Below are positions 6,736 through 52,308 of a stretch of DNA of 53,966 bases, one piece after another (the stretch's first letter is position 1; the number at the start of each line of letters is the position of its first letter). This stretch comes from a virus. Position numbers and translations under genes: made by a program. The DNA lies in IMG/VR virus record IMGVR_UViG_3300043639_000022, positions 1 to 53,966 of that record, one strand, 5' to 3'. The notes beneath the pieces were generated by a model. The model did not search any database, was not told where the DNA came from, and saw only the letters and a list, made by a program, of their open reading frames with translations.

Positions 6736-6741
6736 AATTCG

Positions 6742-8843: not shown

Positions 8844-8880
8844 AAATAGTCAACCACATTTTTAGAAGATAAGTTTTAGC

Positions 8881-17147: not shown

Positions 17148-17153
17148 GACGAA

Positions 17154-17315: not shown

Positions 17316-17500
17316 GCCTGCGACCCCATGTCTTCTTCGGTGATCTGTTTCGTCTCCGCGACCTTTGCCCGAGCCGCGGCGATGATTTCCTCATCCGTGC
17401 GCGTGTCGCCCTTCCTGAGTTCACCAATCAACGCAATCACTAAAGGCGAAAGAGTGTTGATGGCCGTTAAGCCGGATAGAATTTTGTCTTCTGCTGGCAT
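17312..17500 (-). CDS. Hypothetical protein
   Basis: 62-aa ORF. Confidence 0.4.
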   Translation of the reverse strand: MPAEDKILSGLTAINTLSPLVIALIGELRKGDTRTDEEIIAAARAKVAETKQITEEDMGSQA

Positions 17501-17970
17501 TATTTCACCTTCATTGTTTGCGCAATCAGAATTGCTGAGTTAATCGCCGTGACCGCCGACTGGATGAGGATATCGATCCGGTCGTTGCCAACCCTTGTGT
17601 GTACGAGTTGCTGCGCCGCTTTCGTTAGTAAGTCGATTACCGCTTGCCCGCTCATGCCAGGCTGTAATTGTGCGGCGACTTCCACGGCTTCAGATAGATA
17701 CTCGTTTGCTTCGTGGACGCCCGTCGCCACCTTTTGACGGGTAGCGATAGCACCGGGTGAACCGACAGCACCGTATACGGCAGAGCGGTACAGTTCACGA
17801 TTCGATTTGGCTGCGGTATTGAGAATTGATGCGGCTTGATCGACTTTGACTTTGACCTTGTGAACATCATTCGATGAACACGCGAAGCCGTAACCGCTAT
17901 AGGCTATCGCTGCGATCAGTAACAAGACTGCAATTTGCTTTCGTTGAATTCCTAGATACAAGTAGACCAC
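17500..17970 (-). CDS. Putative lipoprotein
   Basis: Signal-like LLLIAAIAYSGYGFAC followed by an all-helical mature region. Cys after a hydrophobic stretch. Confidence 0.45.
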   Translation of the reverse strand: MVYLYLGIQRKQIAVLLLIAAIAYSGYGFACSSNDVHKVKVKVDQAASILNTAAKSNRELYRSAVYGAVGSPGAIATRQKVATGVHEANEYLSEAVEVAAQLQPGMSGQAVIDLLTKAAQQLVHTRVGNDRIDILIQSAVTAINSAILIAQTMKVK

Positions 17971-17983
17971 CCGCCTTTCCGCC

Positions 17984-18199
17984 TTAGAAGGCTCTGCGCT
18001 GATTCAACCACTCTGCAAAGGAGTGGCCTTTTGCAAAGTTTCGTTCCTCTAACTTTCGTTCTGTTTCGTAAAGTCTGAGCAGTAGTTCCTGCTCTAGTGC
18101 TGAATGTGAGTCGCAGCACTGGCATCGGGGAGTGAAAACAATGCTACCTACTGTCGGGGTTTCAAATCCGGTCTTAGGTTGTAATCGCTTGCCGGTCAT
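17984..18199 (-). CDS. Hypothetical protein
   Basis: 71-aa ORF containing CQCC. Confidence 0.4.
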   Translation of the reverse strand: MTGKRLQPKTGFETPTVGSIVFTPRCQCCDSHSALEQELLLRLYETERKLEERNFAKGHSFAEWLNQRRAF

Positions 18200-18453
18200 T
18201 TCGGATCACCCGTTACATCCTTTGTCACCGTGATTGTTGTTTCAGTGTGCTTCGCGGGCAAAGGTGACTGTTTCAAATATGACGCGATCGCCACGAGCGC
18301 AGACGCTCCACAAGCGGTTGAAATGTTCTTCCAGCCAGCTTTTGAGTAGATGTCGAACGTGTTGGGATTGACGACGATCAACAAGACGCCGGAGGCCGCC
18401 GCGCCTATTGCGCCGCTTGCTAGTCCATACAGCCAGTTCTTGAAGTCGTCCAT
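18196..18453 (-). CDS. Small two-TM membrane protein (holin-like candidate)
   Basis: 85 aa, GLASGAIGAAASGVLLIVV and ACGASALVAIASYL hydrophobic segments. Confidence 0.4.
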   Translation of the reverse strand: MDDFKNWLYGLASGAIGAAASGVLLIVVNPNTFDIYSKAGWKNISTACGASALVAIASYLKQSPLPAKHTETTITVTKDVTGDPK

Positions 18454-32140: not shown

Positions 32141-32344
32141 ATGAAACGATTAGCTTTAATCCTTGTGTTGCTTTCCCTGATCTCTATCCCCGTGCTTGCC
32201 GGTGAGACCGAAGGACCACCGTCGCCGCCGCAACCACCGCCCTGCCGTGAAGACTGCGGTAACGGCTTAGTGAGCATCCCGCCCGGATCAAACTTTGGGC
32301 AGATCGTCGCCGCTATCGTGCTCGCCATTCTTGGCAGACGGTAG
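32141..32344 (+). CDS. Small exported Pro-rich peptide with C-terminal PEP-CTERM-like anchor
   Basis: MKRLALILVLLSLISIPVLA / GETEGPPSPPQPPPCREDCGNGLVSIPPGSNFGQIVAAIVLAILGRR. AGGAG lies 9 nt before the ATG. Confidence 0.55.
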   Translation: MKRLALILVLLSLISIPVLAGETEGPPSPPQPPPCREDCGNGLVSIPPGSNFGQIVAAIVLAILGRR

Positions 32345-32542
32345 GCGCGTACTCAGATACAAATCCTCAATCCGACATCCCAGCTTGAGGGCATACGTCT
32401 CCAGTGCCCCGAGCCTGGGTATCGGCGTGCCTGCCCATAATCTGCCGCCTACGGAGTGAGGTACGTGAAGGAATCGCTCCAACTCCGCCGCCGAATTTAT
32501 ACCCTGCCGCTTTGCCACTTGTCTAATTCGTAACTTAATCAT
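32288..32542 (-). CDS. Small XRE-type HTH regulator
   Basis: Start MIKLRIRQVAKRQGINSAAELERFLHV at 32542. The 3' end overlaps the convergent peptide gene by 57 nt. Confidence 0.55.
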   Translation of the reverse strand: MIKLRIRQVAKRQGINSAAELERFLHVPHSVGGRLWAGTPIPRLGALETYALKLGCRIEDLYLSTRLPSAKNGEHDSGDDLPKV

Positions 32543-32553
32543 TGCCGCAGTAT

Positions 32554-32569
32554 AGCCCAAAAGTGGGCG
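32554..32569. repeat. 16-bp operator-like repeat AGCCCAAAAGTGGGCG, copy 1
   Basis: Identical to 32665-32680. Internal dyad GCCCA-N4-TGGGC. Abuts a TATACT -10 on the minus strand. Confidence 0.7.
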
Positions 32570-32657
32570 CACGTTGCAAGAAATATATTTTAATCTCTTA
32601 ACTCTATCAGGTGTAAAGACTTACAGGATTCAGCAGGTATTTCACCTGAAATAGTTG

Positions 32658-32686
32658 TAGACAAAGCCCAAAAGTGGGCGTATAAA
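32658..32686 (+). promoter_or_regulatory. Early-right promoter candidate TAGACA-17-TATAAA
   Basis: tagaca (32658-32663), 17-nt spacer, tataaa (32681-32686). GGAGAAGGAGA RBS, then ATG at 32715. Confidence 0.5.
32665..32680. repeat. 16-bp operator-like repeat AGCCCAAAAGTGGGCG, copy 2
   Basis: Occupies 16 of the 17 spacer positions of the TAGACA-17-TATAAA promoter. Confidence 0.7.
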
Positions 32687-33848: not shown

Positions 33849-34186
33849 AAACAATCATCGCCGGATCGCGCACGATTACAAATAGAAACGAGATAGCCGT
33901 AGCCGTTGCGCGTTCACGATTTCAAATCTCAGAAGTCGTCTCAGGCGGTGCGCGTGGCATCGACCAACTCGGAGAGCGTTGGGCTGAGACGAATGAAATA
34001 CCAATCAAGCAATTTCTCCCACGCTATGAGACGTTTGGAAAGAAAGCCCCGATCATACGCAACGCTGAAATGGCACGTTACGCCGATGCGCTGATTGCGA
34101 TTTGGGACGGTAAAAGCGGCGGGACGCGCAACATGATTGAGCAAGCAAAGAAGTACGGACTCCGACTGTACGTGGTAACGAAGTGA
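33845..34186 (+). CDS. DUF2493 / SLOG-fold protein
   Basis: IIAGSR...VVSGGARGIDQLGERWA...IAIWDGKSGGTRNMI. Confidence 0.6.
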   Translation: MKTIIAGSRTITNRNEIAVAVARSRFQISEVVSGGARGIDQLGERWAETNEIPIKQFLPRYETFGKKAPIIRNAEMARYADALIAIWDGKSGGTRNMIEQAKKYGLRLYVVTK

Positions 34187-34629
34187 ACGAACTGACGTAT
34201 AGCACGAACCTGAAGCCCGCGAAGTTGAAACTGAAGCGTTCAGCAATGAAGCGCGGCGTCAAGAAACTGCGACCCGTCAGGAAGTCAGCGATCAACTCGG
34301 AACACTGGCTAAAGAGTAAGTTGACGATCGCGTTCTCGAAGTTCATCCGTGCGCGAGATCCGTTTTGCTACTGCGGGCAACCGTCGACAGAGAATGGTCA
34401 TTACTTCAGCCGTGCGGTTCCCTCAACTGAATATGAGCCTGATGCGTGTCTTGGCTCCTGTAGTCGCTGCAACCTACTCCACGAGACAAATCCGGCGCCG
34501 ATGAAGCGCGCACTGATCGCCAGGATAGGTGAAGAACGATTCAGCGAGCTCGAGCAGAAAAGCTGGGATCATTCCAAGTTGACTTATTCAGAATTAGAAG
34601 ACCTTTGCGAGTTATACCGGGAGAGATAA
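34183..34629 (+). CDS. ninG: NinG-like recombination protein
   Basis: FSKFIRARDPFCYCGQ...NGHYFSR...CSRCNLLHETN...IARIGEERFSELE. Confidence 0.65.
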   Translation: MNELTYSTNLKPAKLKLKRSAMKRGVKKLRPVRKSAINSEHWLKSKLTIAFSKFIRARDPFCYCGQPSTENGHYFSRAVPSTEYEPDACLGSCSRCNLLHETNPAPMKRALIARIGEERFSELEQKSWDHSKLTYSELEDLCELYRER

Positions 34630-35132
34630 TGAATAAACTTCTACCCTGCCTCGCCTTACTGACCATCTCGAGTATCTGCATGGCCGATGGTGTCAACAAG
34701 CCTAAGAAGAAACGTCACAAGGCTGCTGTGGTCAAGCAAGACACTAAGCCTGCGGCCAAGCCGAAGCTCCCGTCTCTGCTCACATCCAAGTACGACTTGA
34801 TTGCAGAACCATTCGTCAGACCGTTACGACCACTCAACGAGATTCCGCCATTGCCGGCTGAAGTGTTGGTGACAACCGAGACGAGAGTTTATGATTTCGA
34901 GGAGGACAAGAAACCTAAGTGGGCCTGGTTGCTACTCGGTACAGCAGCGATACCGTTTCTGATCCCTCATGGACATGATGATGTGATACCAGTCCCGCCA
35001 GTAGGCCCAGCACCGCAGATTGCGCCTCAGAGTGTGCCGCCGACAGCAGTGCCAGAAGGTTCGACGCTGCTTTTGCTGTCGATTGGGTTTGTGTGTCTAG
35101 GTTTCTCAATCAGAAGGAGGCGGAATGCCTGA
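34629..35132 (+). CDS. Exported protein with PEP-CTERM sorting signal
   Basis: Signal peptide MNKLLPCLALLTISSICMA. C-terminus VPEGSTLLLLSIGFVCLGFSIRRRRNA has a PE(P)-like motif, TM helix and Arg cluster. Confidence 0.6.
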   Translation: MNKLLPCLALLTISSICMADGVNKPKKKRHKAAVVKQDTKPAAKPKLPSLLTSKYDLIAEPFVRPLRPLNEIPPLPAEVLVTTETRVYDFEEDKKPKWAWLLLGTAAIPFLIPHGHDDVIPVPPVGPAPQIAPQSVPPTAVPEGSTLLLLSIGFVCLGFSIRRRRNA

Positions 35133-35319
35133 ATCCCAACCACCAATCAAGCATCAATGTCGCTATTGTGCCAAGTTCGCCGCTGATATTGTCGATGTTG
35201 AACTGCGTCCCGATGGGTGCAACTGGACGCAAGCCTACGCGTCTCGTGTCTGTGGAAAATGCCGAAAATACTTGCAAGGACGGTTTCGCTATCCTAATCG
35301 AAAGGCGACCACGAAATGA
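35125..35319 (+). CDS. Zinc-ribbon protein
   Basis: CRYC...CGKC. Confidence 0.4.
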   Translation: MPESQPPIKHQCRYCAKFAADIVDVELRPDGCNWTQAYASRVCGKCRKYLQGRFRYPNRKATTK

Positions 35320-37809: not shown

Positions 37810-37978
37810 TAGATGCGCTGACCGCCGTCATAGCCACTGTGAACTCAAGCAGAAATGTGGCTGTCGGTCTTGGAAGTGCTGTCAAGCCTTTGGCCGGTCC
37901 GTTCCGTCACTCAGTATCTTGGCGAGAATCGTATGGTGGTTTAAGTTGAACTTCATCTACGGTGTCGAACGCTACTGA
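37796..37978 (+). CDS. Small Cys-rich protein
   Basis: 60-aa ORF, CDRC...HC...CGC...CC. The 3' end overlaps the convergent late gene by 7 nt. Confidence 0.3.
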   Translation: MMICDRCADRRHSHCELKQKCGCRSWKCCQAFGRSVPSLSILARIVWWFKLNFIYGVERY

Positions 37979-40188
37979 GTAATACACCCACTCGCCCAAG
38001 TACAGACTGTAATTCCGGTTGCACCTAACCCTGTTAATAGCGTAGACCAATCAACGCCTGGATCAGTTCCCGCCGTTCCCATTCCCTTATAGCTACTAAG
38101 CGCGGTTAGTGAGTAGTTACCCGCCGTCGCGCCGGATTGAGCGTTAGTAAAGCCCACGCTACTGAACGAGGTAATCACTGGACAGATGTTTGCTCCGCTG
38201 CCCCACTCGCTCGACGCACCGCAATGAGTCGCTCCTGAACCTGCTGTGTCGTTCTCTACGACCACGTTGTTAGAGAACGATGCGCCAGGATAGCAACCCG
38301 CAAGACCACCCGCGCCGCCACAGGTATCGAGAGCCTGCATCCCGTAAGTCTGATAGGCAACGATATTGTCTCGAAAGACAAAGTTCGTGACAGGAGCACC
38401 GTAAACACCCCAGGTATCATAGTAAGCAAAGGCTGTGTTGGCAGTGTTGATGACGGTGTTGTGGTACACCTGCATGTCATCGACATTTTTCGAGTAGGCC
38501 AATGACGAAACATTCTTGATGAGGTTGTTGTAAATCAGAACGTGTTTAGTGGGATCAATCGTCGCGTAGTTTCCCGCATCAACTACTCCAAAGGCTTCCC
38601 GTGTTCCCGCTGTCGGATCTAGGTCAGGCGCAATCCAGTTGTTCCTAATTGTGATGTACTTACAAGTGGACCACGGAGCTGTGCCGTACTGATTGCCGGG
38701 GTAAGTCGTCAGGATCGCCGGATAGCCGAGAACATAATTACCTTCAAAGGTGAAGCGGTTAATGTTCTTGATCTCGTACAGACCTTTCGGAGTCGCCCCG
38801 CTTCGAGCTAAGACATCAGCGGCAAACACTGGCTCAACATAGAATGTGTTGCGCTTGATTAGAACGTCGTTTACTAACCCTTGATCGCCGTAGTTCCAAT
38901 CGGCCACCACTGCACTGTTAGAAGCAAGAGCGTTCGTGCCAAAGGGTGTGTAATTCACCGTCGAACCGACAACGCTCGTGACTACAGCAGTTTCGTACAC
39001 CGTCCAAGTAACAGTGCCTGGAGTTGATGATGCCGATCGGGTTCTAGCCCATGTATAAGTCCCGCCTGAGACCGTACAGATGCCAATGTAGCCATCAAAG
39101 TTATCGACCACATTGCGGGTAATGCCGTACATGATCGCGTCTGATGACGTGAGAGAACTTCCTGAGAGACGGGTTAGCGTGGCTGACGAGTAAGGCATCG
39201 AACCATTCGCGGGAAACGAACCGTTGCACGAATCATTCAGTCCAGTAGCGTCAAGCGTGGCAGTGCCAGTGAAAGCCAACCGAAGCATCCCGCCGGCGGT
39301 GAGTCCAGTGGTATTCGAGAAGGTTGCGCTCGTAGTCGTCGCCCCCGTTAAGGTTGCGGTATTCTGCGGCAGCGTATCGCCACCGCCAAAGAATCCGCTA
39401 TTCCACCACGAAGATAAGTAGTTATCTTCGAGCGTTGGAGATTGACACGAAACACACAAGAAGGCACTCGTCTCCATCTGCGTGTGCGTAAACGGAGATG
39501 AACCTTGCGCTTGAGATGTGTAGTAATACCCGATGAAGGGTTCCGTATAACACCACTTGTAGAGCAGCGTCGTCCCTTCAAATTGCACTGCGCGAATGAC
39601 TGCGCGATGGTAGCCAATACCGCTTTCAGTAGTTCCCGTTCCTGTTTCTTTCTGGTGCAGGTAGAGACGCTTGATAACGATGTCGTGACAGCCTGAGAAC
39701 GAATTGCCGAGATCGAGCAAGCTCTGGACTGTGTTCTCCACTCCTGGCGCGTCAGTGAGTTCTAATCCGTCAAGAGTCCAGAAGCCCGCATCCGTGGCAG
39801 TGGTGAATACCGACGCTCCCGAGCCTGCCGTTGTTCTAATCTTCGGCATGTTAGCCGCATCACTTGGCCCAACTCGTCCACTAGGTAGTGACGCCTTAGC
39901 GTCAGACTCGACCGTGCAGGGGCTTAAAGACGTGCAGGATCTATTCGGTAAGGTGAACACTCCGTCGAACGTGTCACCCGCATGGATAACAACCGTATCG
40001 CCGGCGACGACCGCATCAAGAGCATTCTGAAGGTTCGAGTAAGCGCAGTTGGGTGCAGACGCGACAGTCGCATTTGAGTGTCCGTTGCACTGAACTGTAG
40101 TTCCGCCGTTATTCCTCACGTACCAAGTCGAGGCGTTAGCGGAGGCGAACAGCCCGCAGATAAAAACGAGTGCGAGTATGAATTTCAT
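37972..40188 (-). CDS. Exported right-handed beta-helix (pectate-lyase-fold) protein, polysaccharide depolymerase candidate
   Basis: Start MKFILALVFICGLFASANA/STWYVRNNGG...LQNALDAVVAGDTVVIHAGDTF, then many N/G/T-rich repeat turns. Confidence 0.55.
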   Translation of the reverse strand: MKFILALVFICGLFASANASTWYVRNNGGTTVQCNGHSNATVASAPNCAYSNLQNALDAVVAGDTVVIHAGDTFDGVFTLPNRSCTSLSPCTVESDAKASLPSGRVGPSDAANMPKIRTTAGSGASVFTTATDAGFWTLDGLELTDAPGVENTVQSLLDLGNSFSGCHDIVIKRLYLHQKETGTGTTESGIGYHRAVIRAVQFEGTTLLYKWCYTEPFIGYYYTSQAQGSSPFTHTQMETSAFLCVSCQSPTLEDNYLSSWWNSGFFGGGDTLPQNTATLTGATTTSATFSNTTGLTAGGMLRLAFTGTATLDATGLNDSCNGSFPANGSMPYSSATLTRLSGSSLTSSDAIMYGITRNVVDNFDGYIGICTVSGGTYTWARTRSASSTPGTVTWTVYETAVVTSVVGSTVNYTPFGTNALASNSAVVADWNYGDQGLVNDVLIKRNTFYVEPVFAADVLARSGATPKGLYEIKNINRFTFEGNYVLGYPAILTTYPGNQYGTAPWSTCKYITIRNNWIAPDLDPTAGTREAFGVVDAGNYATIDPTKHVLIYNNLIKNVSSLAYSKNVDDMQVYHNTVINTANTAFAYYDTWGVYGAPVTNFVFRDNIVAYQTYGMQALDTCGGAGGLAGCYPGASFSNNVVVENDTAGSGATHCGASSEWGSGANICPVITSFSSVGFTNAQSGATAGNYSLTALSSYKGMGTAGTDPGVDWSTLLTGLGATGITVCTWASGCITQ

Positions 40189-40196
40189 GCTTGAAA

Positions 40197-41255
40197 TCAA
40201 ATGCCAATACAGCCCAACGCCCATGTGCAGATCGGAATACCCGCCGCCCCTACTTCAGCAACTCCCATCTGCCAGTGGTTTGATCCATAGGGTTGATCGA
40301 GGTCAGTGGCTCCACAATAAAACAGCCACCATAGCCCGTTGATCTTAATCAAATGCGGAGTTGCCGTGTGGTAGCGATCAAACGCTCCAGGCGTTCCGGT
40401 CTTAGCTAGAAAAGGATTGATTGAGTAACGCACCCAGCCTGTACTTGGATCAGATGACGTAGCGAGTCTGACATCCCAATCAACGTCAGTGCCGCCACTT
40501 TCATAAGCCAGAAAGTAGGTTGAGCCAATCTTGAAGAGTTGATGGAACTCATGGTAGCGAGTGCCGTCGTGGTAAACATCAACTCCACCCTTAGTCCACG
40601 TCAGACCATCACTCGAACTCGCGTATCGATAAGCTGGTAACACGGCTCCCGATGCGCGATATGAATAGATTGCGTGCCATGATGAGCCTTCTCTAAGGAC
40701 AGCCAACTGAGATGTGTATGTTTCATCTCCTGAAGCCATCATCACCGGATTAGAAGCGTATCTAGTCCAGGTGAGTCCTAAGTCAGACGATCGCATCAAC
40801 CCAATTTGGTTTTGATGTGCCGTGTAGTACAACCAAATCTTAGAGTCGTCTGAATTGTAGAAACACGAGTCAACTCGAATCCCGTCGCCACCGTTTTCCC
40901 AGCCTGCAAGTATCTGTTCGGCCACCGGTAGCCCGCCATTACTGACTGTTAGCGTCGTGGGATCGCTCGTTGAGAAGGTTGCTCGACCGATTGATTGAGT
41001 TCCCGATGCCACCGGTGCGCCCATGCCGGAAAAGAACATGATCACCTGAGTACTATCGGATGGATTCACGACCGTACAAGGATCGAAAGATTGCGAGTCG
41101 AAAAAGTTTCCCTGACTCGTAGCGAGGGCAGCAATCTGATGACGCGTTCCTGGTGCGGGCAGTTGCGCTAACCCTGCCACTTGACAGACGAGAATGATCG
41201 CCAATAGCGAGAGGTATCTAGCAACCACTGAATGGATACTCCTTGCTCGCGCCAC
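40197..41255 (-). CDS. Exported beta-propeller glycoside-hydrolase-like protein (GH32/43/130-type fold candidate)
   Basis: Hydrophobic N-terminus LSLLAIILVCQVAGLAQ. Repeated blade-like segments ...SSDLGLTW..., ...SSDGLTWTK..., ...SSDPSTGW... . Start uncertain (38-nt overlap with the upstream gene). Confidence 0.4.
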   Translation of the reverse strand: MARARSIHSVVARYLSLLAIILVCQVAGLAQLPAPGTRHQIAALATSQGNFFDSQSFDPCTVVNPSDSTQVIMFFSGMGAPVASGTQSIGRATFSTSDPTTLTVSNGGLPVAEQILAGWENGGDGIRVDSCFYNSDDSKIWLYYTAHQNQIGLMRSSDLGLTWTRYASNPVMMASGDETYTSQLAVLREGSSWHAIYSYRASGAVLPAYRYASSSDGLTWTKGGVDVYHDGTRYHEFHQLFKIGSTYFLAYESGGTDVDWDVRLATSSDPSTGWVRYSINPFLAKTGTPGAFDRYHTATPHLIKINGLWWLFYCGATDLDQPYGSNHWQMGVAEVGAAGIPICTWALGCIGI

Positions 41256-42009
41256 TGTTGTACAGACAGGTTTTCTCGGTAGGTGTTAGCAGTCTCTTCC
41301 AAATAGCGACGTTATCGATCTCGCCCGGAAGGTAATCTTCAAAGCCTGAATAAGCTCGCGCTCCAATGCGAAACTCGGTAGAGGTGTTTTGTGGTGCGGT
41401 TCCAGTGGTGGAGACACTCACGGCAGTATTATTGTTGACCTGAATGTTGACTGTATCTGCCGTCGCGTCATGCCAAGCGACGATGTGATACCAAGTCGCG
41501 GTAGTGACGGATACCGCGTTGTCTGTCACGATGATCGACCCGTTGACATAGAACCGGAAACGACCTGTCCCTCCTGGATCTGAAATATCCAGCGTGTAAT
41601 CTCTGCTTGACGCAGGTGAATCGCTATCCTTGCTGACAATGGAGTACGAAATGCCGGAAGGAATCGAACTGAGCAGCACGTCAGCGACAATCGTAAAGTC
41701 GATATCACCCATCTTTACGTCTGCCGAAGTTCCAGCCAGAGAAAGATAATGGGTAGCACTACCATTAAGGTATACCGCGTTGCCGATTAGTCCTGTGTTG
41801 AAGGTTGCGCCTCCAGCATTCGTGAGAGTGTTTCCCCGTCCTGAAGCGTCGGTAGTATCCGAGAGTTTGTACGCTGCCGTGAGGCTAGTCAGGATAGGTG
41901 AACTACTGGTGACAATCGGACGCCTGACAACTTCTTGAGCCTTCTGCTTTGAACCAGCAAAGCAGAGCGCAAGGATGCAGAAGGGAAGTATTAAGAGTGC
42001 TCGTTTCAT
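41218..42009 (-). CDS. Exported LamG / concanavalin-A-like lectin domain protein
   Basis: Signal MKRALLILPFCILALCFAGS. LamG pattern GNAVYLNGSATHYL...DFTIVADVLL...FRFYVNG...WYHIVAWHD...EIDNVAIWKRLLT. Confidence 0.55.
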   Translation of the reverse strand: MKRALLILPFCILALCFAGSKQKAQEVVRRPIVTSSSPILTSLTAAYKLSDTTDASGRGNTLTNAGGATFNTGLIGNAVYLNGSATHYLSLAGTSADVKMGDIDFTIVADVLLSSIPSGISYSIVSKDSDSPASSRDYTLDISDPGGTGRFRFYVNGSIIVTDNAVSVTTATWYHIVAWHDATADTVNIQVNNNTAVSVSTTGTAPQNTSTEFRIGARAYSGFEDYLPGEIDNVAIWKRLLTPTEKTCLYNSGASKEYPFSGC

Positions 42010-42011
42010 AA

Positions 42012-44114
42012 TTATTGTGCGCGACGAATCTTGAGTTCCACTCCGATCACGTCGAGCGATGCGCTCAAAGTGTCGGAACCATCATTGCCATCTCGGAATA
42101 GTTTCAGGTGGAGAAACTCACCCGCGGCACAGCCCGTCACGGTCAAACTTGTTATCGTGCTGGTTTGTAGTCGGCTTCCTGTACCTGGAGCCGCCGTGGT
42201 CGCTGTGCTCGCAGTATTGAATGCAGTGTCGTCCGTTTCCGTGGCTCCTACAGCCGTGCAGATAGTTGACAGAGAGAACTTGGCATTGCCTGAAGTGGCA
42301 GCGGTTTTCCAAATGATCTTCGCGTCGACGGTTCCGGTCCAGTCATCCGGTAAGAGCGTCGAGTTCTGAGCACTAAAGCCGCCTGACGTGTCGGCAAATT
42401 GTAAGACACCCTTCTGCGTGTTTGAACCTGTCACACAAGCAGCAACTGCCGGCGTAGATGTTGGGAGATCCCAAAACGATGCCGCCGTCGCATTGTTACA
42501 GCCAGCTCCAGCGAACCAGATGTTATGAACGGTCGTGAGTACGTTTCCGGTCGACTCAACGTTGAGCGTCTTATTAGTTAGAGTCTCGCTACTTGACGGA
42601 CTAACGAAGTCCGTTCCTGCCGTAGCCGCAGAGATAGCCGACGTACCGTTGCCTTTGAGAACTCCGGTGAGTGTCGCCGCGCCCGTACCGCCATTAGCTA
42701 CACTTATCGCTCCTGAGATGCCGTTAAGGAATACTTCTCGATAGGCAGTCCCGTCGTAGAAGAAGACTCTATTACTTGAGGCGTTCGTGTTTCGGTAGAA
42801 AGTTCCAGTGACAGGAGAACCAGGCATCGAGCCGTCTGACGCGCCGTAATCGCCACCAACGAGCTTTAGAGTGCCGTCAGTGAAGGACTTCAGACCTGTA
42901 ACAGACTCAGCACCACCAAGCGTCATTAAGTCGGCATCCGAGACCGCTGTATTGAGTTGCGCGATCGTGCTGGTAACTGTGTTACTTCCGAGTGAGATGG
43001 TTTTATTCGAGAACGAGTTCGAACTGGAGATTGTTGGCACAGCCACGCTACCAATCGTCACGCCGGTAGTGAAGTCGGGAGACGTGCCGAACACTAATGC
43101 ACCCGTACCTGTTTCACCTGTAACCGCAGAGGCGAGATTGGATGATGACGGTGTGGCTAGAAATGTTCCCACGCCAGTACCGAATCCGGTAATGCCTGTC
43201 GATACTGGAAGCCCTGTGGCGTTCGTTAGCGTCACCGCTGACGGAGTACCAAGATCGGGAGTCGTTAAAGCTGGAGATGTAGCGAACACCAACAGCCCGC
43301 TGCCCGTCTCATTCGTCACCGTTGACGCAAGATTTGCGCTTGTTGGTGTGACAAGAAACGTTCCCATCCCCGTTCCGAATCCAGTGATACCCGTGCTCAC
43401 AGGAAGTCCAGTGCCGTTAGTTAAAACGACCGCTGAAGGCGTACCGAGTGCTGGAGTGGTGAACGTCGGAGAAGTAGCAAAGACCAGCAAGCCTGATCCT
43501 GTTTCGTTGGAGACGACTCCTGCTAACTGCGCTGATGTCGTGGTCGCAAACTGCGAAAGAGGACTAGAGGTAAGCGCGTCACCACCGCCAGGAATCGACT
43601 GCCACGAGTTGTCGTCCCTGAGAAACTTTGAACCGTTTGGCGTTCCAGTAGGATCGTCATACTTGGCATCGAGCGCAGTCTGCAAATCGGTTTGAGCCGA
43701 AAGAGTGCCGGTAATTGATCCCCACGGTAACGCGCCCGCAATACCGGTATTTCCTATCAGGTAATTGCTGCCGTTAGAAATCACCCTCGCGCTCTGCCCT
43801 GTAGTGAGAGCTAGAGTCGACGCGCCACCAATAGTCGACGTGGTAGGCGTAATCGTGACCGTGCCGGCCCCGATGTTCTTAATGTCCACAAACCAATCAG
43901 AGGGGAAGTTTGGGCTGATAGCTCGCGGAATGGAGACCGCTACGGATGCAGCGTTGGAGAGTGTCACCAACTTACCCGCGTCGGAACTGACAACCGTGTA
44001 CGTCGTACCCGTCTGTGACTTCACGATCTGACGGTTAGCGCGTATCGGAGTCTGTCCCTGTGCCGCGAAAGGAACACTCAACAGAAGAAAGATTAGGAAA
44101 ATTCTAGCTAACAT
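42012..44114 (-). CDS. Tail fibre-like protein with N-terminal signal-like sequence and 65-aa tandem repeats
   Basis: MLARIFLIFLLLSVPFAAQG/QTP. Fibre motif LPWGSITGTLSAQTDLQTALDAK. Repeats NETGSGLLVFATSP..TTP.LGTPSAV.LTN.TGLPVSTGITGFGTG. Confidence 0.6.
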   Translation of the reverse strand: MLARIFLIFLLLSVPFAAQGQTPIRANRQIVKSQTGTTYTVVSSDAGKLVTLSNAASVAVSIPRAISPNFPSDWFVDIKNIGAGTVTITPTTSTIGGASTLALTTGQSARVISNGSNYLIGNTGIAGALPWGSITGTLSAQTDLQTALDAKYDDPTGTPNGSKFLRDDNSWQSIPGGGDALTSSPLSQFATTTSAQLAGVVSNETGSGLLVFATSPTFTTPALGTPSAVVLTNGTGLPVSTGITGFGTGMGTFLVTPTSANLASTVTNETGSGLLVFATSPALTTPDLGTPSAVTLTNATGLPVSTGITGFGTGVGTFLATPSSSNLASAVTGETGTGALVFGTSPDFTTGVTIGSVAVPTISSSNSFSNKTISLGSNTVTSTIAQLNTAVSDADLMTLGGAESVTGLKSFTDGTLKLVGGDYGASDGSMPGSPVTGTFYRNTNASSNRVFFYDGTAYREVFLNGISGAISVANGGTGAATLTGVLKGNGTSAISAATAGTDFVSPSSSETLTNKTLNVESTGNVLTTVHNIWFAGAGCNNATAASFWDLPTSTPAVAACVTGSNTQKGVLQFADTSGGFSAQNSTLLPDDWTGTVDAKIIWKTAATSGNAKFSLSTICTAVGATETDDTAFNTASTATTAAPGTGSRLQTSTITSLTVTGCAAGEFLHLKLFRDGNDGSDTLSASLDVIGVELKIRRAQ
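43050..43535 (-). repeat. About 2.5 tandem copies of a 195-nt (65-aa) coding repeat in the fibre gene
   Basis: Units start at aa 194, 259 and 324 of the 700-aa protein and are near-identical. Confidence 0.75.
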
Positions 44115-45213
44115 AGCTTACCCTCAAATAGTCTCCCGTTTCAGGGATGGTGATCATGGTTATGGTTGCGCCTGAGATCGTGTAGTCGGTCAAGTCAGTC
44201 AGTAACCAACCGTTAAGAAAGACTTCTTCACTGCCGTCCGTAGGTGTTGCCGCCAGAACAAAGGTCGCATTCGATCCGTCAACTGAGCCTGTAGGCGTTT
44301 CGTTGACTACGCGATCGGTTACGTCGGTCTCATAGCTGACAACGAAAGTATCCCCTGTTTGCGGGATTAAGATTTGCGTCAGAGTTGAGCCTGAGAGTGT
44401 GTAGTCAACCGTCGAAGCTAGAAGCTGACCGTTAAGAAACACTTCAGCGGAATTAACGACTGGAGTGCCACCGAGAGCGAATGAGGCGTTCGATCCGTCT
44501 ATCGATCCTGACGGTGTTTCTCTAACGATCCGGCTTGACGTTCCCGTCTCATAACTGACAACTAAAGAATCGCCTGTATGGGCGACGACAATTAACGTGA
44601 TGGTCGAACCGGAGATCGTGTAATCAACATCAGCGGTGAGTAGTTGACCGTTAAGAAATACTTCCTCTGAGTCTGAAGTTGGAGCGTCATCCAGGACAAA
44701 CGTTGCGTTGCTGCCGTCGATACTGCCGGAAGGAATCTCGCGCACCACGCGCCCGTCAGTTGTGCCAGTACCACCGCCGCCGATTGATGCGATGTCGAGA
44801 ATGCCCGCAGACGGACTTGATACCGTCATCGTTGCTGAATCGAAGTTGAACGTCGTGTAAAGACCTGGTAGCGCAACGCCATCGACTGTGACCGTCACTC
44901 CCGAAGTCGGAGCGGAGACAGCCGCGCCTAAAGACTCAAGAGTCGCTGTGGCAGTAGCGGGAATGTCAACAGGAACGCCGGATGTGGGCGAGAAGCTCGC
45001 TGATCCGATAAAGAACTGACCTTGTAGCCAGACGCGAGCGTTCTGAGGAAGGTTAAAACTTACGAGACCGTTAGCGTCTGATGTGTCGAGAGTGACTTGC
45101 TTGAATTGGATTACCGCTGACGAAAGGGTTGTTCTGACGGCGTAAATCTTGACGTGCGGGATAGGGACACCCTGCACATTTTTCACCGTTCCAGTAATCA
45201 GACAATCAGCCAT
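44104..45213 (-). CDS. Tail fibre / receptor-binding protein with three 73-aa tandem repeats
   Basis: Likely start MADCLITGTVKNVQG. Repeats R.V.E.P.GS.DGSNA.F.L...P....EVFLNG.LL...DYT.SG.T.T......TGD...VSY. Confidence 0.55.
   Translation of the reverse strand: MADCLITGTVKNVQGVPIPHVKIYAVRTTLSSAVIQFKQVTLDTSDANGLVSFNLPQNARVWLQGQFFIGSASFSPTSGVPVDIPATATATLESLGAAVSAPTSGVTVTVDGVALPGLYTTFNFDSATMTVSSPSAGILDIASIGGGGTGTTDGRVVREIPSGSIDGSNATFVLDDAPTSDSEEVFLNGQLLTADVDYTISGSTITLIVVAHTGDSLVVSYETGTSSRIVRETPSGSIDGSNASFALGGTPVVNSAEVFLNGQLLASTVDYTLSGSTLTQILIPQTGDTFVVSYETDVTDRVVNETPTGSVDGSNATFVLAATPTDGSEEVFLNGWLLTDLTDYTISGATITMITIPETGDYLRVSYVS
44107..44751 (-). repeat. Three tandem 219-nt (73-aa) coding repeats
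   Basis: aa 162-234, 235-307 and 308-376 align by eye. Confidence 0.75.
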
Positions 45214-45287
45214 GTAAAACACCTTCCGCAGCACACTGTTTTAGTGCGGAAGGAGAATGGCACAGACTTGATCTTTAAGTTTTGGGC

Positions 45288-45985: not shown

Positions 45986-47325
45986 ATCGTATACTTCGTT
46001 CTCAGATACCCTTCGACTCTTTGACGATTCACCGTCGAGAGCGCACCTTCATAGACGAGAACTTCGGCGATATCTCCATCAAACGGCAGAGAGTCGTCAT
46101 ACGCCGAGCCTAGTGTATAGCCGGTGAGCACCTGTGAACCCGCCGCACCTGAAGCAACAGAAGTCCCATTCTTGTAGATCGCGCTCGATCCCGCATTGAA
46201 TACCGCGCTCAGAACCACAAAGCTAGTACCTACATCTGTCGCGCTGTTGAGGCTGGTTCCCGCGTTGATGACCAACACTCCATCTGTGACATTAGAGAAG
46301 ACCAGTTGGCGATTTGACCCCCCGATACCGTCAAACCATATCTGGCTAGCAGTAGCGTTATCATGCTTGCCAACTATGAAGACCGTACATTGTTGAGCAA
46401 GCGCGGCGAAACTTGCGCTTCGTAGAAAATCATTTGACCCATCGAATCGAACAATCGGTCTATGGTTCTGAATGTCTCTCTTGTAGATCGGCTGTTTGCT
46501 TCCGGTCGCCTGAACCAGATCATAACTACCATAACCGTCGAGCCATTCACTCACCGCCTCACCGTCTCTTAATCTCAAGGCGTCAGCCATGAACACGCTC
46601 CTCAGTCCGGTGATGGAAGAAGGGTCGAAATAGTCGATCTTATACTTCGCCATCAATGCCCGTCTGATCGTGTACGCGTTATCGGTCGAGAGTGTACCGT
46701 CAAAGTAGAGAGCCTCTGCGATGTAACCAACCCACGGAGCCGAGAAATCGTAGGCCGCACCCATCGTTATTCCAGTGAGAGTTTGCGATCCGGTATTACC
46801 TGAGATTTGGTAAATGTCATTCAACCGAATCGTGGACGTGGTGGTATTAAACACTACTTCCAGAAGAAACCAATCCAACCCAACATCGTGGAGACCGGTC
46901 AAGTTCGTCCCTGAACTAGCGATCGGAGCACCACTAGGAAATGCTGTGGCGACTAACATTCGATTGCTCGCCCCAATACCATCTACGAGGAACCGACCAG
47001 TAGACCCAGAGGGACTACTAGCTACCAGATAGACGGTTACTGGATGAGCGCGAGCACCGAATGCCGCTGTAGCTAGATAGTCATTTGAACCATCGAATAA
47101 GAGTGCTGCCCGACCATTCGCGGCACTGATTTTGAATAGTGGCTTGTTGGCTCCTGTCGCTTGTGTAAGGTGGTAGCCATTACCAGATTGATCCGTGAAC
47201 GTACCTACCGCATCACCGTCAGCAAAGGACTCTTGTGAGGCGTCGTACCAGGCGCGGAGAGTACCGAGCGTCGAAGGACGATACGCGGAGAAAAGCTCTG
47301 TTGTGAAACCTATTCCATCAGCCAT
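45982..47325 (-). CDS. Tail fibre / RBP with two tandem LamG-like domains
   Basis: Two units of about 215 aa, each L R...DG.AV....D.SG.G..L.QATG...P........R....FDGSND.L....F...... ending G.IAE.L.Y.G.LS.....R......KY.I. Confidence 0.6.
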   Translation of the reverse strand: MADGIGFTTELFSAYRPSTLGTLRAWYDASQESFADGDAVGTFTDQSGNGYHLTQATGANKPLFKISAANGRAALLFDGSNDYLATAAFGARAHPVTVYLVASSPSGSTGRFLVDGIGASNRMLVATAFPSGAPIASSGTNLTGLHDVGLDWFLLEVVFNTTTSTIRLNDIYQISGNTGSQTLTGITMGAAYDFSAPWVGYIAEALYFDGTLSTDNAYTIRRALMAKYKIDYFDPSSITGLRSVFMADALRLRDGEAVSEWLDGYGSYDLVQATGSKQPIYKRDIQNHRPIVRFDGSNDFLRSASFAALAQQCTVFIVGKHDNATASQIWFDGIGGSNRQLVFSNVTDGVLVINAGTSLNSATDVGTSFVVLSAVFNAGSSAIYKNGTSVASGAAGSQVLTGYTLGSAYDDSLPFDGDIAEVLVYEGALSTVNRQRVEGYLRTKYTI

Positions 47326-50300
47326 TAGATATCCACCGGATTACCGATTCCTTCGTAACGAGCTTTCTGATAGATGCGGAGAAACAGAACTGATTGATTA
47401 ACTCCGAAGTCTTCAATCTGTTGCGAGCTTGAGTAGATCGTTGTTGGAAACAGATCGCCACCTGCCACGATGTTGTCGATGAGAAACGGTCCGATAGAAG
47501 CCTGAACGAGAAACATCTTCAAGCGTAGAGGGAAAGGGAACCCGCCTGACTGTGCTGGAATGATTACCAGTGGAACGTCGCCTCTGCCTGGTTGATAGTC
47601 AGAGTAAATTCGATACTCAGTGCCAGCCAATAGAATGGTGTAGCGCGTGGTCTGTCCGTCTGAGTCCCACGCGAACGTGCGAGTCGAACCTACCTGAACG
47701 CCGTAGTTGTAAATCTTTTCCTCGATATTCGCCGCATCAGGTGACGACCATTCAATGAACACGGGACAGTCTGCCGTCACCATCGACCGCGCCAGCGTGT
47801 CAAAAACATCATCGTGATCCAGCCCCGCAGTTGCGAGAGTTCCCGTACTTGTCAATCCATCAGTATCAACTCTGAAAGTGAAGTCGTAACGAGTAAACGT
47901 AGCTTGCAGGTCTTCGATTGTTTGCGCGGTTGCAGCACCTACGCCTGAACTCAGATTGTTCTTATCAGCGTGAGACGAGATGATATTAACCACATCAGCG
48001 TCAGCGTCGTATGTGGTGTCGCCCGTTGAATCCAACAGACAAGCATGGGTCGTGCCTTCGGTCACAGGCAGCGAGCGCATTAGATCCGCAGATGGATTAG
48101 TTCGGTCGTGACTGCGCCATATTTCAACAACGTACTGAGCGGGAATCTCACTAGACCGTGGACGCCCGACGAACTTAATCAGCGCATCGTTGGAAGCATC
48201 AAACGCAACGGATATGTTTGTAACTTTGCGCGGCCTGAGATTTCCGCCTAACCAGGCAAAGTTGAACGAGGCGGCATCTCCAAGTGACTGACCGACTGCC
48301 ACGGAGCGGAAGGTTAGCGAGTCGCGCAGTTCGTCTAGCCCTGCGTCGATAAACTTGATCGCATTGTCGAGCAGGACAAATCTTGTGTCCGTCAGATCGG
48401 GAGCGTTCCATAGTTCTTCTGTTTCAGTTAGACCACTCAACAGCCCTGTCAATTCCCAGCGGTTAGCGTAGTCCGTCAACTGAGTCGCTGTAGTGAATCC
48501 GAATATCGACTGATCGACAATCGCTCGATTCTCGCCGTCTCGCATTGCGTCTTCAGACACAGACGACAGAGTTGCGGTCGTGCCGTACAGGTCAACCGTG
48601 ATCTTCCCAACGCTGTCCAGTGTGTCGGAATCAACAGCCAGAGCAGTTGAGCTAACTACCTTGCCAATTGTGGCGGGAAGGTTTGAAGATCCCCGTAACG
48701 ACCAAACACTGTTTCGCTGAGACTGAAGCGTCCACCCTGCGAATGTTTGACCTACTGCCGTTCGTGGTGTGCCACCTGCATACCATCCGATCCGGTCTTG
48801 ATCTGCATCCCTGAATTGCGGAATGTCCAGCACCGTAGCAATGATCATCGCGGGGATTGGCTGTGGTGGAATGTATCCAGGCGGGAAGACGCCGTTAGCT
48901 GGCTGATCAAATATCTCAGGTTCGAGTGCGAAGCCTTCACACGTCAACAGACCAATTCCGCCCTCGATAGAACTCAACCTTAGTACGTGCGTAAAGCCCT
49001 CTGCGCGAGTGACTGTGACTTTGTAACCAGGGTGCAGATAAAGATACTTCCACGGCAGGGTGAACCGGTGAACTGTTCCCGCTACATAATCTCGATAAAG
49101 TTTCCGCTGTGCCGTCGCTCTGCGCTCGTCTGACAACTGAGCAATGTTGATTTCTACTAACTCAACTGTTGAGCCATCGGTAATCTGCCGCATTGCGCTT
49201 TGCGTGTTCGCATCCCAATCGTTATCAGGGTCGAGGGATTTAACGTGGACATCTCGCGCAAGGTCTTTTTCAGCGACTAAGATGGAATCAATTTCAGGTA
49301 GTACATCAGGCAGATCCCCATCGCCTTCCAACCAACCGATTTCAGTGTCAGGAATCGTGATTGACGGTTCATCACCTTCTGGAAAGCCAACCAGTTGACC
49401 CTCGACCTCAGTAACGAAGAAGTTACCTGCCAACTGAATGTCTGGACTGCCGATAATTTCAGCCGGCGCGTAAGGGCGACCGCTAACCAGTAATCCACGA
49501 CACGCAATGTCAAGATCAGTGAAATCGTAATCACCATTCGCCGTTAGTACTCCAACACGCTCACACATCGAAGCAAATATCTCGCCCCATGTATCGAGTG
49601 TCTGGTGTTCCCAAACTGCGGTGATGTTCGGGACCGTGCCACCCCAGCGGGACATGTCCAGCGTGTTGTGAACTACGAGCGCGTGATTCTTGTAGGCAGG
49701 AGTTGATCCGGTTCCGTATTTCGCGTCGACGTCAGACTCGATAGTTGGATCCGGTTGTTGGTCGTCGTTGCCTGGATAGATAGCGAAGCCAGAACTACCA
49801 CCTTGAACTGTTCCTGTCCCTACTCCGTCACCATCAACCGCAATGTCTCCGTCAACCCGATCGAAAGAGTCTCTATAGTTCAGCGTTGGGTCTGGAGGTT
49901 CGAGTGGATCGTAGTCGTCATCTGCTCCTACGCCCGAGTCGTGTACGCCTGAAGGGTTAGCAGACTGTGTGAACTGATCAATCAGAATGTCCGCATTGCC
50001 GTACTCACGGATCAAGTCAAGCGGCCCACGGGCGAACAATAGACCGAGATCAATGTTGTATGAGACGTTATCAACTGTCTGTGAGTGGCCGCCAAACCCC
50101 TTACCGCCCTGCGTCGGAACCTGTGAAGTCGTAATAACTTTGCGAATACCCGAACTCCACACGATGATGGCCGGAACCTTAATCCCGCCTCGTCCCTGAT
50201 TCGGAGCGTCACCGATTGAGCTAATCTGCACCTTGCCATTAGAGATCCCCGCACCGGACGAGTACATCGTTAAGCCCATGTAGAGAGGGAAAGTTGCTGA

Positions 50301-51026
50301 GACAGCCGTTGTGACGAGTAACTCCGCACTGTTCTTATAGAGTCTGAACCTGCCTTCTCGATACTCGATTCTCAGCACGTCAGTGTTAGACCAAACAGAA
50401 ACCTTTTCACCAACGTCGTTGACGACTGACAGTAAGGAACCATCCGGTCCCCAACTAAGACCGAACAGACATCCTGAATGAACTGTTGACCCCGTAGGAC
50501 TCGCCGTTGTGTAAAAGCCGCAGGTAGCCCACCCCGTTGACGGTATCACCTGAATGAAGGCGTCCTGAGTCGCAGTAAACGATGTGTTGTGGGTTGCGCC
50601 TGCGTTATAGGTATTCGCAGTTCCAGATGTTTTAGTTATAGAACCGTTCGCGCCGCCTGTCGTGTTCGTGAGGTTCTGGTAAGTCGGATTAGATCCCGCA
50701 ACCAGACTGATTGCTGGTCCCTTGCCGTAAATCTCAGGGATCATTATCCCTTGTTCAGAGTTCTGAAGCTGGAGCGTTCCTGACAGTTCACCGAGTCGTC
50801 GTCGTGGAGGTTTAGGCGCAAGAGCTGCGCTAATCGTATAGGACGCAGCGGCTAGAGCGACCGAGATGGCGACCGAGATCGCAATGGAGACCGGATCGTG
50901 AATAACGCCTTGCTCAAGAGACGCTTCTATCTCAGCCCGTTTCCGCGCTTTCGTCTCTTCCCATTCTTCTTTGATCCAACTGATCACTCTTTGATTCTCC
51001 AGATCGAGTGAACCCGCTTCCGCCAA
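47325..51026 (-). CDS. Host-specificity / central tail-tip protein (RcGTA g15 'megatron'-like, lambda J-class)
   Basis: 1233 aa directly after the NlpC/P60 gene. N-terminal hydrophobic ISVAISVALAAASYTISAALAPKPP. Start uncertain (43-nt overlap). Confidence 0.65.
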   Translation of the reverse strand: MAEAGSLDLENQRVISWIKEEWEETKARKRAEIEASLEQGVIHDPVSIAISVAISVALAAASYTISAALAPKPPRRRLGELSGTLQLQNSEQGIMIPEIYGKGPAISLVAGSNPTYQNLTNTTGGANGSITKTSGTANTYNAGATHNTSFTATQDAFIQVIPSTGWATCGFYTTASPTGSTVHSGCLFGLSWGPDGSLLSVVNDVGEKVSVWSNTDVLRIEYREGRFRLYKNSAELLVTTAVSATFPLYMGLTMYSSGAGISNGKVQISSIGDAPNQGRGGIKVPAIIVWSSGIRKVITTSQVPTQGGKGFGGHSQTVDNVSYNIDLGLLFARGPLDLIREYGNADILIDQFTQSANPSGVHDSGVGADDDYDPLEPPDPTLNYRDSFDRVDGDIAVDGDGVGTGTVQGGSSGFAIYPGNDDQQPDPTIESDVDAKYGTGSTPAYKNHALVVHNTLDMSRWGGTVPNITAVWEHQTLDTWGEIFASMCERVGVLTANGDYDFTDLDIACRGLLVSGRPYAPAEIIGSPDIQLAGNFFVTEVEGQLVGFPEGDEPSITIPDTEIGWLEGDGDLPDVLPEIDSILVAEKDLARDVHVKSLDPDNDWDANTQSAMRQITDGSTVELVEINIAQLSDERRATAQRKLYRDYVAGTVHRFTLPWKYLYLHPGYKVTVTRAEGFTHVLRLSSIEGGIGLLTCEGFALEPEIFDQPANGVFPPGYIPPQPIPAMIIATVLDIPQFRDADQDRIGWYAGGTPRTAVGQTFAGWTLQSQRNSVWSLRGSSNLPATIGKVVSSTALAVDSDTLDSVGKITVDLYGTTATLSSVSEDAMRDGENRAIVDQSIFGFTTATQLTDYANRWELTGLLSGLTETEELWNAPDLTDTRFVLLDNAIKFIDAGLDELRDSLTFRSVAVGQSLGDAASFNFAWLGGNLRPRKVTNISVAFDASNDALIKFVGRPRSSEIPAQYVVEIWRSHDRTNPSADLMRSLPVTEGTTHACLLDSTGDTTYDADADVVNIISSHADKNNLSSGVGAATAQTIEDLQATFTRYDFTFRVDTDGLTSTGTLATAGLDHDDVFDTLARSMVTADCPVFIEWSSPDAANIEEKIYNYGVQVGSTRTFAWDSDGQTTRYTILLAGTEYRIYSDYQPGRGDVPLVIIPAQSGGFPFPLRLKMFLVQASIGPFLIDNIVAGGDLFPTTIYSSSQQIEDFGVNQSVLFLRIYQKARYEGIGNPVDI

Positions 51027-51412
51027 TGGTCGTTAATGCGATGCTCTCTCACGCCGTGCTGAGACGCGTGGACGATAAATGTAGTCTTGGGTGTGATGTC
51101 TGACACGAAAACCAGGTGACGTGGAATCTCAGGTTTGGCGCAAGCCTCATCGCACAAGGCTAGAACATCACCAACCTGCATCTCTTCGACCATCTCCATG
51201 TGCTCAGTCAGTAGACGAAGCATGATCTGCCCGTCTTCGTGAGGTCGATAGTCACGAGGGATACTGAGATCCTTAACGCCTGCATCTTTAGCGACAGATG
51301 CAATGAAGTTTACGCAGTCGACACCAACATTCTTGATGTTTCCCTGATGCTGAAAGCGCGTACCCTTCCAAGTTCGCGCCTCTTCGATTAGCCGTTGTGC
51401 GAGTGTGCTCAT
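50984..51412 (-). CDS. NlpC/P60 cell-wall peptidase (tail-associated)
   Basis: ARTWKGTRFQHQGNIKNVGVDCVNFI with catalytic Cys context and downstream His residues. Confidence 0.75.
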   Translation of the reverse strand: MSTLAQRLIEEARTWKGTRFQHQGNIKNVGVDCVNFIASVAKDAGVKDLSIPRDYRPHEDGQIMLRLLTEHMEMVEEMQVGDVLALCDEACAKPEIPRHLVFVSDITPKTTFIVHASQHGVREHRINDHWRKRVHSIWRIKE

Positions 51413-52236: not shown

Positions 52237-52271
52237 TGGAGTGTCAGAGTAGCGGTAATGGCGGGTTTATT

Positions 52272-52301: not shown

Positions 52302-52308
52302 TTGGTCT

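Follow-up and report, generated by a model that had tools for sequence, protein, structure and literature searches.

A family of soil-phage early-operon proteins with a predicted PEP-CTERM sorting signal

Introduction

Substrates of the exosortase (EpsH, Xrt) system, e.g., the TIGR02595 proteins of Verrucomicrobium and Nostoc and PepA of Zoogloea, share a signal peptide at the N-terminus and, at the other end, a P-E motif followed by a transmembrane (TM) helix and an arginine cluster that ends two residues from the C-terminus. What is known of exosortase-dependent sorting comes nearly entirely from inference by comparative genomics, and a role has been established for few of the substrates. 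An EpsH homologue is present wherever PEP-CTERM domains are found, and PEP-CTERM proteins contain few basic residues, are enriched in Ser, Thr and Asn, and are typically encoded by a single gene behind a long upstream region (Haft et al. 2006, PMC1569441). Here, we describe a gene at positions 34629-35132 of the virus record IMGVR_UViG_3300043639_000022, which encodes a 167-residue protein with this layout; below, "the window" refers to the whole stretch of DNA that was analyzed, i.e., all 53,966 nucleotides of that record. The likeness to the PEP-CTERM substrates extends to rapid evolution, an origin from soil, a hidden Markov model (HMM) score above the curated cutoff and a lack of homology outside the tail (PMC1569441). 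Unlike those substrates, the protein and its relatives are encoded by phages, in early operons; the window protein is basic, carries a P-E-G motif and has an extra conserved hydrophobic helix, and the loci that were retrieved are free of exosortase genes.

The early envelope proteins Llp of phage T5 and Cor of phages phi80 and N15 use the Lgt/Lsp/Lol lipoprotein pathway of the host, and their receptor-blocking activity has been shown. The family described here is analogous in that its phage members are small exported proteins, encoded early, that would depend on a host sorting pathway, except that both the pathway and the activity are predictions in the present case. A second point of comparison is SasX, an LPXTG surface protein of a staphylococcal prophage (e.g., PMC7047976), which is likewise a surface protein of a mobile viral element with a C-terminal sorting signal that needs a host enzyme. 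SasX differs in that it belongs to the Gram-positive LPXTG/sortase system and is expressed from the lysogen as a colonization factor, and it has no sequence relationship to the window protein.

An earlier note on this DNA, made from the sequence by itself, was aware of no characterized phage-borne exosortase substrate. A full-text literature search for PEP-CTERM combined with phage, prophage or virus likewise returned none, the nearest case being HOG10 of the Dehalococcoides IME1 virus-like elements, which is assigned a PEP-CTERM domain in a one-line annotation (bioRxiv 10.64898/2026.09.15.751708). Both HOG10 and the window protein come from a virus-like element, but the host phylum and the type of element differ.

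Results

A PEP-CTERM protein in the window

The gene and the regions of its product are as follows (all on the plus strand):

34629..35132, stop codon included: gene for the PEP-CTERM protein, 167-residue product (ORF list and sequence)
34620..34625: Shine-Dalgarno-like GGAGAG, read from the sequence 5' of the ATG at 34629
34629..34685: predicted signal peptide, residues 1-19 (MNKLLPCLALLTISSICMA, then DG), from hydropathy, an AlphaFold2 helix at 4-20 and conservation
34686..34778: strongly basic N-terminal region of the mature protein, residues 20-50 (DGVNKPKKKRHK...KPK), from composition and predicted coil
34920..34964: central hydrophobic helix, residues 98-112 (WAWLLLGTAAIPFLI), Kyte-Doolittle hydropathy 1.86, AlphaFold2 helices 98-106 and 108-111
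34965..35048: Pro-rich linker, residues 113-140, 32% Pro
35049..35123: PEP-CTERM domain, residues 141-165, with a V-P-E-G motif, TM helix and RRRR (TIGR02595)

The open reading frame (ORF) and the C-terminus of its product, VPEGSTLLLLSIGFVCLGFSIRRRRNA, are found exactly as quoted in the earlier note, and the PEP-CTERM layout proposed there is borne out. The model TIGR02595 (PEP_CTERM) matches residues 141-165 with 23.3 bits (E 7.4e-5), where the curated cutoff is 16. Because this cutoff is passed and all elements of the layout are there, from the signal peptide through the P-E motif and TM helix to the Arg cluster at the extreme C-terminus, the protein is a PEP-CTERM protein by the sequence definition of that class. 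The Pfam model PF07589 stays below its gathering score (16.6 vs 20.7 bits). However, PF07589 recognizes only ~22% of the TIGR02595 hits (Haft et al. 2006, PMC1569441), and its failure therefore carries little weight. A regular-expression scan of the six-frame translation found no further convincing PEP-CTERM-type tail in the window, and outside the tail the protein has no homology to any Pfam, NCBIfam or PHROG family.

Hydropathy analysis identifies three hydrophobic segments in the protein, at residues 3-22, 98-115 and 141-163. The first belongs to the predicted signal peptide, with the n-region MNK, an h-region at residues 4-17 and a cleavage site at A19|D20, as judged from the sequence and from conservation in an alignment of 18 family members (see below). 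In this alignment, to which all conservation data refer, the cleavage region reads [VCS]x[AG]|DG; the A/G|D-G junction is kept, with D20 unchanged throughout and G21 conserved to at least 90%, while a Cys at the cleavage site is absent or unaligned in most members, i.e., it is not conserved. From its sequence the site is of the type recognized by signal peptidase I (SPase-I) and not a lipobox. The segment that follows (residues 20-50) has a K+R content of 32% and a pI of 10.5, is predicted to be disordered coil, and retains a DG[VI]NKPK+K motif across the family. The central helix displays the pattern LLxGxxAIPFL, then PHGxD, with L102 and G104 at least 90% conserved, and the linker is of variable length across the family and Pro/Thr-rich in the cellular homologues. 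In the tail, hydropathy peaks at residues 143-162, within a predicted helix at 143-166, and RRRR occupies positions 162-165, two residues from the C-terminus. The AlphaFold2 model, which was based on a 4-sequence alignment, is of low confidence (predicted local distance difference test score, pLDDT, 57), with helices at 4-20, 98-111 and 143-166 and the rest coil-like.

The central helix is preceded by a Lys and followed by an Asp. Because these flanks are reversed relative to those of a span that follows a cleaved signal peptide, the helix is predicted not to form a second membrane span; instead, it may belong to a longer module for sorting or interaction. A holin with three TM segments was also considered and rejected, because the N-terminal h-region of ~14 residues is too short, the SPase-I site is conserved and the charges flanking the central helix oppose spanning.

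A conserved, mostly phage-borne family

Relatives were found with a word-indexed protein search (three relatives), with a metagenome scan (eight loci) and with an exhaustive profile search of 1.84 billion representative proteins, which gave 64 matches at E<=1e-3, about 15 of them full-length with E values down to 1e-62. The homologues, which are 36-52% identical, reside on 10 phage-like and about 9 cellular contigs. In addition, the C-terminal module, i.e., the central helix, a P/T linker and the tail (profile positions ~95-161), recurs in about 45 other small PEP-CTERM proteins. One of these proteins, P0028, is encoded on the chromosome, in a core region flanked by uvrA and a tRNA synthetase gene, and another, MGH9944102.1, is annotated as [quoted passage not shown]. 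No match to the family was found in PHROGs or in 50,697 GenBank phage records, and scans with the family alignment identified no relative in 185,579 species genomes or, using alignment A1, among viral contigs.

The mean column identity of the 18-sequence alignment is 40%, and just three positions do not vary at all: D20, with which the mature protein starts, L51, and the motif Glu, E143. Conservation reaches 90% or more at V141, P142 and G153 of the tail, and 13 of the 18 members match TIGR02595 at E<=0.01. On these sequence data, the 167-residue protein is a member of a conserved, previously undescribed family that is mostly phage-borne. The conservation pattern also provides the strongest argument that the motif is recognized by something, because V-P-E is kept in a fast-evolving, disordered protein, and a plain membrane anchor would not constrain these residues. 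Judged from the alignment, the PE motif itself is under selection.

This pattern bears on the concern that the ORF is spurious, or that an ordinary TM anchor resembles a PEP-CTERM domain by chance. The domain is short (~24 residues) and of low complexity, the Pfam model does not reach its threshold, and the confidence of the AlphaFold2 model is low. However, neither a spurious ORF nor a coincidence would be expected to have full-length homologues at the E values given above, a signal peptide, motifs and tail that are conserved across 18 sequences, TIGR02595 matches in most of these sequences, and the sole tail of its type in the six-frame translation of the window. Because of the conservation we exclude this explanation, to which we assign a probability close to zero.

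Operon placement in a complete temperate phage

Genes with PHROG matches in the window encode a P22-type coat protein, a portal protein, the large (TerL) and small (TerS) terminase subunits, a large tail protein and an integrase. A direct repeat of 127 bp is found at both ends (1-127 and 53840-53966), from which it follows that the contig closes into a circle of ~53.8 kb. The window holds the entire genome of a temperate soil phage, with no host flanks, and the claim of the earlier note that the protein is phage-encoded is confirmed by these genes and the terminal repeats. The nearest cultured phages are only 45% (coat) and 43% (TerL) identical, while a homologue search with the coat protein revealed many relatives. 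A viral-contig scan with the coat protein returned the related phages L023 and L024, with no member of the family in the retrieved parts of either; the same scan found no relative with the window NinG-like protein and distant matches only with a 447-residue tail protein.

The immediate neighbors of the gene, both on the plus strand, are:

34183..34629: upstream neighbor, gene for a NinG-like protein (PF05766, 48.9 bits)
35125..35319: downstream neighbor, 64-residue CxxC-type ORF with no family match, whose ATG falls inside the PEP-CTERM gene (8-nt overlap)

The ATG at 34629 and the TAA of the NinG-like gene overlap by 1 nt. Upstream, NinG is accompanied by a SLOG/YspA-like gene and, further up, by a Cro/C1-type helix-turn-helix (HTH) gene and a gene for a tetratricopeptide-repeat (TPR) protein in the opposite direction. 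The operon diverges from the HTH repressor-like gene, and the PEP-CTERM gene is located just after the NinG homologue, in agreement with the early-right operon placement that had been proposed from the sequence. The ten phage-like contexts in which the family was found are the window and the following loci:

L001: primase, helicase, methylase and lysozyme genes
L019: ERF recombinase and an adjacent gene, 63-73% identical to those of the window
L020 and a 59.8-kb contig: D5 primase, Lar, HNH and amidase genes
L021: family gene after a DNA methylase gene
L022: tail genes 49-74% identical to those of the window
L038: Lar gene
L039: ribonucleotide reductase, HNH and HD genes; GC 45%
L042: dozens of tiny ORFs
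L044: RNA ligase and T4 Y00F genes

Wherever the boundary was read (the window, L001, L020, L021 and L022), the family gene begins within or immediately after the end of the gene before it, and is for this reason part of an operon and not a free-standing moron. The arrangement points to a gene that is translationally coupled in an early operon and expressed in lytic development, as opposed to a moron expressed during lysogeny. On L039, two PEP-CTERM genes are arranged in tandem (10001-10534 and 10531-11121). The first encodes a member of the family, and the second, directly downstream, encodes an unrelated protein with a canonical DVPEPASLFLLGLGLSAAGFLRRRN tail (TIGR02595, 27.2 bits).

The main rival explanation is that the protein is a lysis accessory that acts without an exosortase, either as a periplasmic tether similar to a unimolecular spanin (u-spanin) or as a cationic, "disruptin"-like disruptor of the outer membrane, with the C-terminal helix serving as an anchor. 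The u-spanin gp11 of phage T1 (Kongari et al. 2018, PMC6139136) also combines an N-terminal export signal, a periplasmic middle part and a C-terminal TM domain, which in the window protein would be residues 143-162, and in L001 the start of the homologue coincides with the stop codon of a GH24 phage lysozyme gene. The cationic N-terminus of the mature protein is reminiscent of the cationic lysis peptide of phiKT (bioRxiv 10.1101/515445). In contrast to gp11, the window protein has no lipoylation signal, there being no lipobox and no conserved Cys at the A/G|D-G site, and it is disordered and Pro-rich instead of beta-rich. Furthermore, the gene is located outside a lysis cassette in 9 of the 10 phage contexts: an endolysin gene is adjacent only in L001, and the amidase gene of L020 is 6 kb away. 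The copy in the window follows NinG in the early operon and has NinG and small CxxC ORFs as neighbors, stand-alone chromosomal homologues occur in non-phage contexts, and a role in lysis would leave the invariant Glu and the conserved V-P of the motif unexplained. A separate set of candidate lysis genes is moreover found elsewhere in the window, on the minus strand:

18196-18453: 85-residue holin-like protein with two TM segments
17500-17970: 156-residue lipoprotein, lipobox GFAC
16689-17147: 152-residue i-spanin-like protein with an N-terminal TM segment and a coiled coil

This region (16689-18453) is a probable lysis cluster. None of its three proteins has a Pfam or PHROG family match, and no endolysin was recognized anywhere in the window; a scan for an o-spanin lipobox at 12-22 kb gave no result, but demanded ATG starts. 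Taken together, we consider it improbable that the PEP-CTERM protein is a lysis accessory.

Cellular relatives and the probable host

On the soil contigs L002-L010, the copies of the gene encode products that end in a canonical VPEP[TS]S tail and in which the Pro/Thr linker is longer. On L003-L005, each about 11 kb, the neighbors are chromosomal, encoding an inositol monophosphatase (IMPase), a glyoxalase, a hybrid histidine kinase, a DUF502 protein and a pectinesterase-like protein. These cellular copies stand alone, with a spacer of ~435 nt upstream and flanking genes on the other strand, as is usual for PEP-CTERM genes. In two related species a gene for a CAP12/Pycsar-type TIR effector (L005, 7860-8789, and L002, 2466-3122, both on the minus strand; Pfam PF10137 and the PADLOC TIR effector model, E 7e-32) is convergent with the cellular homologue; no cyclase gene was seen near either of these effector genes.

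The closest named relatives of the L005 IMPase are two proteins from metagenome-assembled genomes of Pyrinomonadaceae (Acidobacteriota), with 69-71% identity. A genome scan with arbitrary peptides of this IMPase gave only distant matches of no informative value, the best being 43% to Actinospongicola. Correlation coefficients (r) of tetranucleotide frequencies (TNF) were as follows:

Window vs cellular contigs L003-L006: 0.82-0.85
Window vs phage relatives L022, L001 and L019: 0.80-0.86
The two halves of the window vs each other: 0.92
Window vs unrelated loci: at most 0.66
Window vs the chromosomal contig L040, of the same GC content: 0.36

A neighbor-joining tree places the cellular copies in a single tight clade, which is nested among the sequences from phage contexts and is sister to the window protein. 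The IMPase identity, the TNF match and this sister relationship together form the basis for considering the host to be probably a Pyrinomonadaceae-like acidobacterium. The nesting suggests transfer of the gene from phage to cell, with the root of the tree uncertain, and from the sequence comparison we conclude that the phage and the host lineage have exchanged this gene. We know of no cultured phage of the Acidobacteriota. The Pyrinomonadaceae-like lineage carries the canonical PEP-CTERM homologues as well as annotated PEP-CTERM proteins, and a literature search on exosortases in Acidobacteria yielded nothing usable; that the host bears an exosortase is only indirectly supported.

The presence of a chromosomal homologue, sister to the window protein, in the probable host lineage also makes it conceivable that the phage protein is a decoy, i.e., a mimic of a host PEP-CTERM substrate that jams the exosortase and blocks sorting of the surface and exopolysaccharide proteins of the host. 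In line with this idea, every cellular copy has P as the third motif residue, and replacements are confined to phage contexts, about 5 of the 10 (G in the window and L001, S in L019, L022 and L042, and A in L020); predicted expression from an early operon would also fit. However, about 5 of the 10 phage-context copies retain the canonical P-E-P, the P-E-G tail scores above the TIGR02595 cutoff, and the argument as a whole is pure inference. We regard a dedicated decoy as quite unlikely, slightly more so than a lysis accessory.

Other features of the genome

The earlier note had suggested that a second ORF encodes a weaker version of the same tail:

32141..32344, plus strand: 67-residue ORF with the Shine-Dalgarno sequence AAGGAG 9 nt upstream; its product begins like a signal peptide and has a hydrophobic C-terminal segment with RR at its end

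This suggestion was not upheld. The peptide matches no C-terminal sorting-signal model at E<=10 and does not have the invariant Glu of the family, and it was rejected as a PEP-CTERM protein. The ORF includes a PPSPPQPPP stretch, overlaps the 3' end of the HTH gene in antisense and may be a real gene for a small envelope or membrane protein in the immunity region. In the same region, a palindromic 15-mer, GCCCAAAAGTGGGCG, occurs twice (32555-32569 and 32666-32680), between the HTH repressor-like gene (32288-32572, minus strand) and the start of the right operon (32715, plus strand). From position and sequence the pair looks like the operator pair of a lysis/lysogeny switch. No tRNA gene was found in the window, nor, with Rfam, a tRNA-like attP fragment near the integrase gene.

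Five consecutive genes on the late (minus) strand at 37972-45234 encode proteins of 750, 352, 263, 700 and 376 residues with signal-peptide-like N-termini. The Pfam matches among these proteins are to GH43 (below the cut-off), Laminin_G_3/ConA-like and CBM_X2 domains. Exported glycan-binding or glycan-degrading proteins would be unusual as tail fibers, and the five proteins could act on host exopolysaccharide. The tail-tip module at 47325-53482 (minus strand) encodes a 1233-residue tail protein, a 142-residue protein that by eye looks NlpC/P60-like, and proteins of 275 and 243 residues. The 1233-residue protein has a homologue in L022 (module at 3020-9631) that is 69% identical and matches the Pfam families Phage-tail_3 and Rcc01698_C. 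The L022 protein resembles RcGTA-like distal tail genes, which are known mainly from Alphaproteobacteria; here the probable host of the phage is an acidobacterium.

Discussion

From the above, we estimate a probability of about 0.6 that 34629-35132 is a real phage gene and that its PEP-CTERM tail is a functional, exosortase-dependent sorting signal. A number of observations weigh against this reading. No exosortase gene was found in the window or in any retrieved locus, and the assignment of the host is indirect. The third residue of the motif in the window protein is G, forming P-E-G instead of the near-invariant P-E-P, and PF07589 scores below its threshold. The mature protein is basic (K+R 14%) with an S+T+N content of only 9.9%, which is atypical of PEP-CTERM proteins, and between the signal peptide and the tail it has a conserved hydrophobic helix that typical members do not have. 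Finally, the phage gene overlaps both of its neighbors, while PEP-CTERM genes typically stand alone behind more than 200 nt of upstream sequence, and the masking or exclusion role discussed below is drawn solely from analogy.

If the tail is a functional sorting signal, the 167-residue product would be a small, largely disordered envelope protein with the following course of events. The gene would be transcribed with the early right operon, as suggested by its position and translational coupling. The product would be exported through the Sec system and the signal peptide removed at A19|D20, the conserved SPase-I type site. The C-terminal helix would then reside in the inner membrane with RRRR on the cytoplasmic side and V-P-E at the periplasmic face, in the topology predicted from its layout. 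As is expected from its family membership, the protein would be cut at the PE motif by the host exosortase and moved to the surface or to the exopolysaccharide. The most likely role would be that the basic, Pro-rich surface or periplasmic protein remodels the envelope of the infected cell; more speculatively, a receptor might be masked or other phages excluded in this way, as with T5 Llp. We consider such a role in receptor masking or superinfection exclusion doubtful; weak hints in its favor are the placement in the early operon and the location of the cellular copies beside a TIR effector gene in two species.

In a broader sense, this widespread family might provide the first exosortase substrates or decoys of viral origin, with which soil phages would hijack or jam the sorting machinery of their hosts during infection to rebuild the cell surface. 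This proposal is tentative, although less doubtful than the specific role in masking or exclusion.

While PEP-CTERM proteins as such are known, the recurrent carriage by phages, the placement in operons and the variants of the motif are new. If the sorting signal is functional, the host sorting pathways known to be exploited by phages would be extended from lipoprotein and sortase signals to exosortase signals, and a compact, disordered substrate of 167 residues with natural P-E-P, P-E-G, P-E-S and P-E-A variants would offer a probe of recognition and cleavage by exosortases. Together with oligonucleotide usage, the family also points to Pyrinomonadaceae-like Acidobacteriota as hypothetical hosts of a complete temperate phage, a virus-host pairing that has been poorly sampled. 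If this hypothesis is correct, the family would be a sequence marker that ties a complete temperate phage to these bacteria.

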